From: Roseateles depolymerans
GTDB taxonomy: Bacteria > Pseudomonadota > Gammaproteobacteria > Burkholderiales > Burkholderiaceae_C
Length of the DNA: 64,000 nucleotides
NCBI RefSeq assembly: GCF_003387155.1
Contig: NZ_QUMT01000007.1
Coordinates: 88,912 to 152,911 of the forward strand
Reading direction: 5' to 3'
The position numbers were made by a program, and so were the translations under genes. Positions 30,691 to 33,696 of the stretch are shown here, piece by piece (positions within the stretch are counted from its first letter, which is position 1; each line of letters starts with the position of its first letter). The notes under the pieces were generated by a model. It was not told the origin of the DNA. It was given only the letters and a program-made list of their open reading frames with translations, and searched no databases.

Positions 30691-33600
30691 TCAGCGCGGC
30701 GGCTGCGGACGATGGGCGGCGTCCGGCTGCGCCAGCCAGGCTTTGAGCTCGGCCACACGCGGATGGCTGGGGGAGAGCTCGATGAAGCTGGCGTAGGCCG
30801 CCTGCGCCTCCTTGTCCTCACCGGCCAGCAGCAATGCATCTCCCAGGTTCAGGTGGGCCAGGGCGCGGCTGCCGTCCATCTCGATGGCACGGCGGTACCA
30901 GCGCGCCGCCTCCGCCGGCTTGTTGCGCTTGAAGTAGATGAAGCCGAGGTTGTTGGCGGCCAGTGCGAATTTGGGCTGCAGCTTCAGCGCCTCGGTGAAC
31001 GCGGCTTCGGCTTCGTCGTAACGGCGCTCCTTGTAGAGCTGCAGTCCCCGGTCGTTGGCCCGCTGTGCCGCCACGCGCGCGCTCACCGGCGCTGCGGTGG
31101 CACTGGTGGCGATGGCGGTGTCCTTGCCGTCCAGGCCCTTGACCGTCACCTGCACCGCTGCGGCACTGCCCGCTGCGGCAGGCGCCGTGACGCCGGGCAC
31201 CGCGCTGGCCGCGGCCATCGGCTGCAGCTGGGCATTGCGCGCGTCGTCGGCCCGCTTGGCCAGGGCACTGGCCTGCACATCCAGCTGGGCGCTGGTGGTG
31301 CTCAGCGCCTGCTCCGGTGCGGACGCCAGTTCAAAGATGAACTCGCCGCCCTCCGAGCCCGGCAGGCTGCCGAAGGCCGGGGTCTGGTGCGCGATGGCGG
31401 AGACCGCCGGCGCCACATACGCGGCCAGTTCGGTCGCGGTGATGAGGCCGTCCCCGTTCAGGTCTGCCTTGCCGGACAGCGCCTGCAGCAACGTCCAGGT
31501 GAACACCGAATGGCCGCCGGGACCGTCGTCGGCCACCTGCTGGTCGGCCCCGCCGGCCGTCATCATCTGACGGCCCAGGCGGCGGGCGTTGTCGCGGATG
31601 AAGTTGTTGCTGCCGGGTGCAGCGCCGCGGGTCAGGCCCAGGCCGGAGTAGCAGGCATCGATGACAAAGAATGCATGCTTGGCGGGCAGGGCCTCGCCCA
31701 GCTCCTGCAACTGCGGCATGGCGATGGCATCGGTCTGCAGATCGTCGGTGCTGGAGTCCACCGGGATGATGTAGCCGACGTCGCGCCCGCTGGGCAGGCG
31801 CCGGGTGCTGCCATGACCGGCGAAGAAGACGAACACCCGGTCGTCCCGCTTCAGACGCGGCTGGCCGGCCTTGTCGCGGGCCAGTCCGTTGAGTGCGCGC
31901 AGGATGTTGGCCCGGGTCGCGTCCCCATCGGTCAGCGTGGTGATGTTCTCAGCCCGGAAGCCGAACTGCGATTGCAGCGTGTCGCGGATGGCCTGCGCAT
32001 CCCGCACCGCATGCTGCAGACGCGGCCAGCGCTGGTACTGGTCGATGCCGATCACCAGTGCATAGCTGTCGCGGTAGAGGTTGGCGCCGGCCAGGTCGGG
32101 CGCCGGGGATTCCGCTGTCGCGGCCGCCAGCGGTTCAATGCGGCCGTCCTTCCAGGCCGCGAGGCGGTAGCCCTCGGCCTTGAGCTGGTCCAGCACCAGC
32201 GGCAGGGCTTCCACCGTGCGGGCATGGATGTCGTGGAACAGCACGATGCCGCGCTGCTGCTTCGACAGCTCGTTCATCACTCGGGCCGCAATCGATTTGG
32301 GAATCGGGTCGGACCAGTCCAGCGAGTCCACGTTCCACATCATCGAACGCAGCTTCAGGCCTTCGATCACGCCCAGGGCGTTGTCGGTGCGAGCTCCGTA
32401 GGGAAACCGGAACAGCGGCTGTCCCGCCCGGCCGGCGGCGTCCAGCAGGGCCTCGGTCTGGCTGGCCTCCTGCTTGACCTGATCCAGCTGGAACTTGGAC
32501 ATCACGCCGTGGGTGAAGCTGTGATTGGCAATCGGATGTCCGGCGGCCAGCACCCGCTTGGCTACCTGCACGCCGGGGCCCGGCTTGATCTGGCCCTTGG
32601 CATCGACGCTGCCGAGGTTGCGGCCCAGCTCGAAGAACACGGCCGGGGCCTGGTAGCGCTTGAGGATCTCCAGGATCTCGTCGGTGTAGCGCGGATGGGG
32701 ACCGTCGTCGAAGGTGAGCAGCACCGTCTTGGGCGGCAGGGCGCGGCCGAAGAGTTCGCGCTCTTCCTTGCTGGGACCGCGGGTGGTGGCAGCGGGCGCC
32801 GCTGCAGTGCTGCGGTCGGCTGCGGTACCTGCGGCGCCGGAGGCTGCAGCAGCAGTGGCGTCGGCGTGCGCATCCGCCGTGCTTGCGGTCGCGGCGGGAG
32901 ACGTGGGGGAAGCGGCCGCATTGCCCACATCCGAAGGCCGCGCGGACAGGTCGGGCAGGATGGTCGCGTAATCCTTCAGAATGCCTTCGCGGGTGTAGAT
33001 CGTCTTGAGCTTGGCCACATAGTCGGTCCACTTCTCCCGCTTGAGGGTGATGCCCCGCTGGGCGAAGCGTCCGAAGGTGTCACGCAATTCCTGCGCGTAG
33101 GCCTGCTCCACCTCGGCCAGCACCGCCAGGTCCTCATGGGCCCGCTTGGCCAGCTTCAGCCCGGAGATGCTCTGCGAGGTCGAGAAGGTCTGCTCCAGCT
33201 GGGTCAGGAATTCCTTGAAGGCCAGGCGGTCGGCGTCGAACCAGCTGGGTTCGGTTTCGATGCGGTCCAGCAACTGGCTCAGGGCAGCCAGGCCCGCCGG
33301 GTCCTGGCCCTGTGCGGTGGCGGTGGCCACCAGGGTCTGCAGGCTGTCCTGCATGTCGTGGAACAGCAGCAGGCCGACGCTGCGCACCGCCTCGCGTTCA
33401 CTGGCCTTGAGCGCGGACTCGCCGTCCATCAGCACGATCATCTGGCGATAGCGGGCCAGGAGCTGGTCCGACTGGCTCACCAGGGAGGCGCTGGCTGTGG
33501 GGCTGGCCGATGCGGCCACGGCCGGGGTCGGGCTGGAGGCAGGGCTGTCGGACGGTTTCTGGCAGGCCGACAGCAGCGCGGCGGCGGTCAGGCCCAGCAC

Positions 33601-33696
33601 GGTCTGCAGGGTCAGCGCCAGGGGGCGGGAGCGCCATGGGAGGGCGGGCCGGCGGGCGGTGAGCTGCAATGGCTGCAATGGCCACGCTGACGCCAT
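30691..33696 (-). CDS. Lipoprotein fusing a polysaccharide deacetylase (NodB homology), a peptidase C14 (caspase/metacaspase-like) domain, and C-terminal TPR repeats
   Basis: Lipobox ...[12 protein letters not shown]. NodB motifs [11 protein letters not shown]...HSFTHG. Caspase block [10 protein letters not shown]...VFFAGHGS...[10 protein letters not shown] (His/Cys dyad). EF-hand-like [21 protein letters not shown] repeats ([29 protein letters not shown]...). The ORF-track 1406-aa entry is N-extended through sequence antisense to purB. Confidence 0.7.

Follow-up and report, generated by a model that had tools for sequence, protein, structure and literature searches.

The closest known counterparts of the protein considered here are the "Xanthomonas-type metacaspases" of Asplund-Samuelsson, Bergman & Larsson 2012 (PLoS One 7:e49888; PMC3501461), in which a PF01522 domain is followed by a C14 domain and by one to three tetratricopeptide repeats (TPRs). 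The type comprised 17 sequences, from the Xanthomonadaceae (Xanthomonas, Xylella, Stenotrophomonas) and from two Acidobacteria. Its Xylella member has 903 residues, with the deacetylase at residues 249–384, the C14 domain at 467–728 and an N-terminal region of about 240 residues. A gene for a predicted deacetylase-metacaspase-TPR lipoprotein lies at positions 30691–33696, on the minus strand, of a 64,000-nucleotide stretch of Roseateles depolymerans DNA (contig NZ_QUMT01000007.1, positions 88,912 to 152,911); this whole stretch is referred to as the window.

The Roseateles protein shares the domain order and the His/Cys dyad with the Xanthomonas-type metacaspases, whose size is 97–100 kDa compared with 102 kDa for the mature protein here. 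The layout of the Xylella entry is the same, as compared by published domain coordinates only. The Roseateles member differs in being betaproteobacterial and in its neighbours, purB and a GNAT gene, whereas the neighbour in Xanthomonas is trmE (PMC3501461). The N-terminal helical domain, the EF-hand-like loop and the lipobox reported below are not described in that paper. Judged from its sequence, the Roseateles protein is a member of this widespread family, the orthology resting on architecture and layout. The features of the gene are the following.

30691..33696, minus strand: whole gene, deacetylase-metacaspase-TPR lipoprotein (open reading frame and translation)
33562..33696, minus strand: predicted signal peptide with lipobox L-S-A-C (Cys45) and Gln at residue +2 (sequence: n-region, h-region, LLSAC)
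32962..33489, minus strand: N-terminal all-helical domain, residues ~70–245, family-specific
32146..32745, minus strand: NodB/CE4 de-N-acetylase domain, residues ~318–517 (PF01522; closest structure 2C1G)
31312..32076, minus strand: Peptidase_C14 metacaspase-like domain, residues ~541–795 (PF00656; closest structures metacaspases)
31426..31464, minus strand: EF-hand-like loop inside the C14 domain, residues 745–757 (EF-hand loop pattern; 245 of 256 family members)
31072..31311, minus strand: Ala-rich helical or coiled-coil-like linker, residues ~796–875 (composition)
30727..31071, minus strand: three C-terminal TPR repeats, residues ~876–990 (Pfam TPR models)

The open reading frame (ORF) runs from an ATG at 33696 to a stop at 30691 and encodes 1001 residues (106.9 kDa). 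The product is 100% identical to the annotated Roseateles depolymerans "polysaccharide deacetylase family protein" (P0001, RefSeq, 995 residues). The start codon is ambiguous, with three candidates. ATG 33786 is preceded by a Shine-Dalgarno-like GAGGGA motif and is chosen by several gene callers, giving 1031 residues; the others are ATG 33696 and TTG 33678, the RefSeq start, which gives the 995 residues. The signal peptide and the lipobox are retained with any of the three.

The original prediction, made from the letters of this DNA, had read a single lipobox protein of about 1000 residues with a NodB-type CE4 (carbohydrate esterase family 4) deacetylase, a caspase catalytic unit, TPR repeats and linkers rich in Ala, Thr and Pro. 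Each of these elements is borne out by the searches described here, and all the motifs it quoted are present: TFDDG at 328, HSFTH at 392, RFPYG at 430, DSLDW at 457, AGHG at 626 and DACYSG at 680. Conservation is given below for 256 full-length family members, with 21 sequences in the distant alignment and 11 close homologues.

The deacetylase assignment rests on a Polysacc_deac_1 (PF01522) match over residues 320–449 (E 2.3e-25; 89.4 bits against a cut-off of 23.1) and on the five catalytic motifs. Motifs 1–5 of the CE4 family (TFDD, H(S/T)xxH, RxPY, DxxD(W/Y) and LxH) correspond to the first four of the quoted motifs and to VLFHD at about 485–489, and are present in 255–256 of the 256 members. 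They supply Asp330 as the base, Asp331, His392 and His396 as the metal triad, Arg430, Asp460, and His488 as the acid, and each of these seven residues is kept in at least 255 members. The closest solved CE4 structure is Streptococcus pneumoniae PgdA (2C1G, E 2e-35), with which all five motifs align in register; the signature of the NodB fold is also common to Bdellovibrio 5JP6 and Bacillus subtilis PdaC (6H8L). The Roseateles protein differs from the PgdA-type enzymes in its Gram-negative envelope origin and in carrying a protease and TPRs on the same polypeptide. The best CE4 matches in NCBIfam are PgdA, PdaB and NodB, all below their equivalog cut-offs; the PgdA equivalog (NF045820) scores 121.6 bits against a cut-off of 800. 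By these scores the deacetylase domain appears to be a relative, not an orthologue, of PgdA. Legionella PdaA, a single-domain CE4 protein of 286 residues, was considered as a candidate and falls outside the deacetylase-metacaspase-TPR family.

The second catalytic domain matches Peptidase_C14 (PF00656) over residues 545–765 (E 1.2e-22; 81.2 bits against a cut-off of 21.4), and carries the dyad His628/Cys682. The NCBIfam caspase sub-family domain is also matched, below its equivalog cut-off. The His motif is found in all 256 full-length members and the Cys motif in 255, so that both active sites, whose conservation the original prediction had proposed as a check, are kept in at least 255 of the 256. 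Invariant in the distant alignment are Asp330, His392, Arg430, Asp460, Trp461 and His488 of the deacetylase, and His628, Asp680 and Cys682 of the C14 domain.

The closest solved structures of the C14 domain are metacaspases, first Yca1 (4F6O, E 2.8e-6), then AtMC9 and AtMC4. With Yca1, Arabidopsis MC4 and MC9 and the bacterial orthocaspases the Roseateles protein has in common the signature of the C14 fold, its His-Gly and Asp-x-Cys motifs, and two acidic candidate S1 positions. The Asp residues of the Yca1 motifs C-I-N-D and D-S-C align with Asp566 and Asp680, respectively; Asp566, like Asp680, is invariant in the distant alignment. The two aligned positions presumably line the acidic S1 pocket of metacaspases and confer specificity for Arg/Lys. 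The similarity to metacaspases is distant (E ~1e-6), and the Roseateles protein is predicted to be exported whereas metacaspases are cytosolic.

A further difference from the metacaspases concerns Ca2+, for which the candidate site of the Roseateles protein is a single EF-hand-type loop embedded in the C14 domain. An EF-hand-type loop is not known to be part of the metacaspase Ca2+ site. The EF-hand-like loop that had been predicted stands in part. Residues 745–757 fit the EF-hand pattern, which is kept in 245 of the 256 members, and the 12 residues 745–756 fit the canonical D-x-[DNS]-x-[DNS]-G-x-[ILV]-x-x-x-E exactly. The Pfam EF-hand models, on the other hand, stay below threshold (EF-hand_5, E 0.018 and 15 bits against a cut-off of 25.9; EF-hand_1, E 0.2). 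By analogy with the metacaspases, Ca2+ dependence of the Roseateles C14 domain is plausible.

The nearest C14 domains outside the family (47–51% identity) belong to uncharacterised proteins that combine a signal peptide, a C14 domain and PEGA repeats. Like the Roseateles protein they have the AGHG His motif, an EF-hand-like loop and a signal peptide, and four of nine have the DxCxSG Cys motif; unlike it they have no deacetylase and no N-terminal helical domain, and PEGA repeats stand in place of the TPRs. Since the closest outside C14 domains belong to these signal-peptide proteins, the clade that unites them with the Roseateles C14 domain looks extracytoplasmic. The loop of the C14+PEGA proteins (among P0183–P0229) is the same as that of the Roseateles protein, e.g. 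DLNGDGIITSGEL, which points to a separate, secreted clade of bacterial caspase homologues with a Ca2+ loop.

Residues 1–45 comprise an n-region rich in Arg, a hydrophobic core and a lipobox, L-S-A-C, ending at Cys45, which satisfies the pattern [LVI][ASTVI][GAS]C; all 11 close homologues have this Cys. Three TPRs occupy residues 878–988 and score above the curated cut-offs of several Pfam models: TPR_2 (54.9 bits, E 4.6e-15, cut-off 27), TPR_1 (50.9 bits, E 9.8e-14, cut-off 27.8) and TPR_16 (49.9 bits, cut-off 32.7). The linkers between the domains consist of 59–84% Ala, Ser, Thr, Pro and Gly. The linker at residues ~796–875 is predicted as a helix in a low-confidence full-length model and has a conserved Q-L-D..EA..L pattern in distant members. 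That AlphaFold model, built on an 11-sequence alignment, has a predicted local distance difference test score (pLDDT) of 52, too poor for inspection of the S1 pocket, with the TPR region at 80–93.

Residues ~70–245, about 175 in all, give no Pfam match and have no known relative. An AlphaFold model of this N-terminal domain, with an alignment of 56 sequences, is confident and all-helical, with five long and two short helices (pLDDT 90.4, predicted template modelling score 0.86). A word-indexed homologue search with the domain alone returned only 11 fragments, all from this family, and revealed no further architecture. The helical domain and the CE4 domain also exist together as complete stand-alone genes of 420–460 residues, without C14 and TPR. 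Because the two co-occur in this way, the helical domain probably assists the deacetylase. There are also C14+TPR proteins that lack the deacetylase (P0194), and the deacetylase-metacaspase-TPR protein looks like a fusion of two modules.

The original prediction held the pairing of a deacetylase with a caspase-like protease to be an unusual architecture, and in this it fails since the architecture is common. A pattern scan with one representative genome per species finds relatives in at least 594 genomes. The 80 best of these loci match nearly the full length of the protein and come from Sphaerotilaceae-type genera, Comamonadaceae, Oxalobacteraceae, Rhodocyclales-type bacteria, Thiobacillus and one Geobacter metagenome-assembled genome. 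With a profile search the range extends to Myxococcota (Pyxidicoccus, Hyalangium) and Acidobacteriota. Hundreds of protein clusters at 90% identity show the order N-terminal domain, CE4, C14, TPR. The 120 best-scoring of these, from Roseateles, Mitsuaria, Pelomonas, Paucibacter and Rhizobacter, are with few exceptions full length and have the same Pfam domains. About 25 further full-length proteins, of 845–929 residues and 32–55% identical, come from an exhaustive HMMER search of 1.84 billion representatives at 50% identity; in each of them one aligned stretch covers the deacetylase, C14 and TPR and a second covers the N-terminal domain. As the result of a genome scan the gene is ordinary: it is an annotated, common gene of the core genome, and its architecture has been in the literature since 2012.

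Identity to the Roseateles protein is 77–91% within the genus, 60–70% in other Sphaerotilaceae-type genera, about 50% in Oxalobacteraceae, Comamonadaceae and Rhodocyclales, and about 40% in Myxococcota and Acidobacteriota. Because identity falls in step with taxonomy, the sequences suggest mostly vertical inheritance and a housekeeping-type envelope gene. To the published description the present analysis adds a helical N-terminal domain specific to the family, the conservation of the EF-hand-type loop, evidence that points to an extracytoplasmic location, a much wider taxonomic range and an argument, given below, against a caspase-3-like identity. A large family that spans several phyla, with both active sites strongly constrained, is also a fair target for envelope biology.

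The function that we consider likely is that of an exported, bifunctional enzyme of the cell envelope, a glycan de-N-acetylase and a Ca2+-loop metacaspase-like protease in one polypeptide, docked through its TPRs. The protein would be a Sec-exported lipoprotein, anchored to a membrane on its periplasmic side, and Gln at position +2 would direct it to the outer membrane by the E. coli rules. The CE4 domain, served by the N-terminal helical domain, would remove N-acetyl groups from a glycan of the N-acetylglucosamine type. Peptidoglycan is favoured as the substrate because the nearest characterised enzymes are of the PgdA and PdaC types, with a surface polysaccharide as the alternative. The metacaspase-like domain may cleave envelope proteins or peptides after Arg/Lys, as the two retained acidic candidate S1 positions would imply, and the EF-hand-like loop could make its activity responsive to Ca2+. 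Docking to a protein partner would fall to the TPRs. Envelope lipoproteins with a short TPR module also include NlpI, PilW/PilF and CpoB/YbgF, whose models give weak matches far below cut-off, a generic TPR similarity only. Thus the domains, the lipobox, the catalytic residues and the single gene of the earlier interpretation stand and the rarity of the architecture does not. Its reading as a factor of cell-envelope remodelling is reasonable as far as the sequence goes, and its reading as a factor of programmed lysis is weak in the light of the literature.

Several points weigh against this bifunctional envelope role. The lipobox is not conserved across the whole family: a loose lipobox pattern is matched by 128 of the 256 full-length members, and distant members have no lipobox Cys, every one examined starting with a hydrophobic signal or anchor. 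The E. coli rules of lipoprotein sorting may fail in Burkholderiales. To our knowledge the substrate specificity of a CE4 enzyme is not readable from its sequence. Asp566 and Asp680 are candidate S1 positions, on the basis of the sequence alignment and of the metacaspase structures. Literature on any family member yields only antibody and expression-cloning work, in Xanthomonas. Clustering of all ORFs within 6 kb of the gene at 82 loci finds no neighbour conserved beyond close relatives, and so gives no pointer to a substrate or a pathway.

The combination of a deacetylase and TPRs in an envelope lipoprotein also recalls the logic of PgaB (a lipoprotein deacetylase) with the TPR proteins PgaA and PelB, and there are weak N-terminal matches to PgaB models. 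The protein could then be a component of exopolysaccharide secretion or modification, as in PgaB/PgaA or PelA/PelB, with a deacetylase and a TPR scaffold acting on the nascent polymer. We regard this as unlikely. The PgaB model TIGR03938 scores 35.5 bits against a cut-off of 321.9; no synthase, porin or glycosyltransferase is conserved next to the gene at the 82 loci, and none is present in the window. Such a role would moreover leave the protease domain without a part to play.

A different role was attached to the family in Xanthomonas, where the deacetylase-caspase clone of X. campestris pv. glycines is reported to have cross-reacted with antibodies to caspase-3 and PARP and the architecture was linked to death (PMC3501461). 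A DEVD-cleaving activity is found in Xanthomonas dying in rich medium. On this view the protein would be the executioner of a programmed cell death, a bacterial "caspase-3-like" protease that is triggered by metabolic stress and kills the cell. The link rests on the antibody cross-reaction, and the Xanthomonas literature searched shows no knockout of this gene. A cytoplasmic DEVDase role fits poorly because an export signal is present in all members examined, and the candidate S1 positions carry acidic residues, like those of Arg/Lys-specific metacaspases and unlike those of Asp-specific caspases. The gene is surrounded by housekeeping genes, and no partner of the toxin, immunity or regulator kind is seen at the 82 loci. 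PADLOC gives one partial match, to a generic "caspase" model over positions 3–137 of 453, which does not make up a defence-system set, and no matches in the three neighbour proteins scanned (CHAT, PAS/GAF and GNAT). A death executioner is thus quite improbable. Given the export signal and the metacaspase-type candidate S1 positions, it is also unlikely that the published caspase-3-like activity comes from this protein, which bears on the disputed bacterial "caspase" in Xanthomonas cell death.

Across phyla, both active sites of this one polypeptide are strictly conserved together, which might suggest that the two reactions are coupled and take place one after the other on a single substrate. 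Clan CD, to which caspase folds are assigned, includes transamidases. The CE4 domain could free a glycan amine to which the clan-CD domain, sortase-like (cf. PorU/GPI8), attaches a peptide or a protein by its C-terminus, or from which it releases one. If true, this would amount to a new mode of protein anchoring in the Gram-negative envelope, with peptidoglycan or a surface polysaccharide as the candidate glycan. The stand-alone helical+CE4 genes speak on both sides. One of the four adjoins a gene for a TPR+CHAT protein, another caspase fold, and the other three have no caspase-fold neighbour, so that this adjacency is anecdotal. The proposal is purely inferential; there is no conserved partner at the 82 loci, and neither a substrate nor a family of sorting signals was found. 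We give a coupled deacetylase-transpeptidase very little credence next to the bifunctional hydrolase of the envelope.

The TPR+CHAT case is found on three near-identical metagenome contigs (L082–L084, positions 6001–11128), where the helical+CE4 gene (P0167, 421 residues) is followed 527 bp downstream by a TPR+CHAT gene of 1111 residues. At these loci the same deacetylase module is thus paired with another caspase-fold and TPR protein. Near a second stand-alone helical+CE4 gene, P0184, an amino-sugar cluster is located (L087, positions 8475–12234), with a SIS-domain protein, a NagB-like glucosamine-6-phosphate isomerase, YdjC and a BadF-type kinase; this is a single instance.

GC-rich DNA yields long spurious ORFs, and the frame here is open for 1.2 kb upstream of the true start, yet an artefact in which two or more genes are joined by a sequencing frameshift or a mis-called ORF is excluded for practical purposes by the same continuous architecture in over 250 independent homologues, all of full length, that come from isolates and metagenomes. 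The single gene that had been predicted is confirmed by the Pfam domains, which all share one frame, and by homologues of 845–1031 residues that align end to end. A check for a frameshift that splits two genes found none, and an identical RefSeq protein of 995 residues exists. The upstream extension of the frame, to 34911 or about 1.2 kb beyond the start, is the antisense shadow of purB (adenylosuccinate lyase) on the opposite strand, whose plus-strand ORF spans 33715–35310, the likely start codon being an ATG near 33943. The G+C content at third codon positions (GC3) and the frame statistics of the deacetylase-caspase ORF agree with a real gene.

The window is core chromosome, with maeB, lptD, sppA, two glutathione S-transferase genes, purB, pyrF, histidine kinases and TonB receptors. 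Since no neighbour is conserved beyond close relatives, the deacetylase-caspase gene behaves as a stand-alone unit. purB is divergent upstream in 18 of the 82 loci, and in the Rhizobacter locus (8-kb flank, called genes) it alone is kept next to the gene. The gene for the GNAT acetyltransferase (29990–30628, minus strand) lies 62 bp downstream on the same strand, has a GC3 below 0.80, lower than its neighbours, and is found downstream in 12 of the 82 loci, all of close relatives.

A second caspase-fold protease had been predicted within 10 kb, a CHAT protein, and it is indeed encoded at 22013–23590 on the minus strand, 7.1 kb away. It is split from the deacetylase-caspase gene by five unrelated genes. 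The CHAT gene is absent from the Rhizobacter locus, the sole relative with a flank (8 kb) that reaches so far, the other flanks being 6 kb. The presence of two caspase-fold genes within 10 kb is probably a coincidence, as far as one relative compared can tell.

The CHAT ORF overlaps by 65 nt the end of an ORF of 885 residues with a PAS-GAF-PAS arrangement (23526–26183, minus strand), whose C-terminal ~320 residues have no Pfam match. The two ORFs may form an operon of a sensor plus a CHAT protease.

Elsewhere in the window, a SAM_alpha (SAM-II) riboswitch match (RF00521) at 17735–17804 on the minus strand scores 36.2 bits against a gathering score of 36, and is located directly upstream of an ORF of 400 residues (16519–17721, minus strand). 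An ORF of 543 residues at 44219–45850 on the minus strand has gene-like codon statistics (GC3 0.85) and no Pfam match at E ≤1e-5; it adjoins a Band_7/SPFH protein at 45854–47548.

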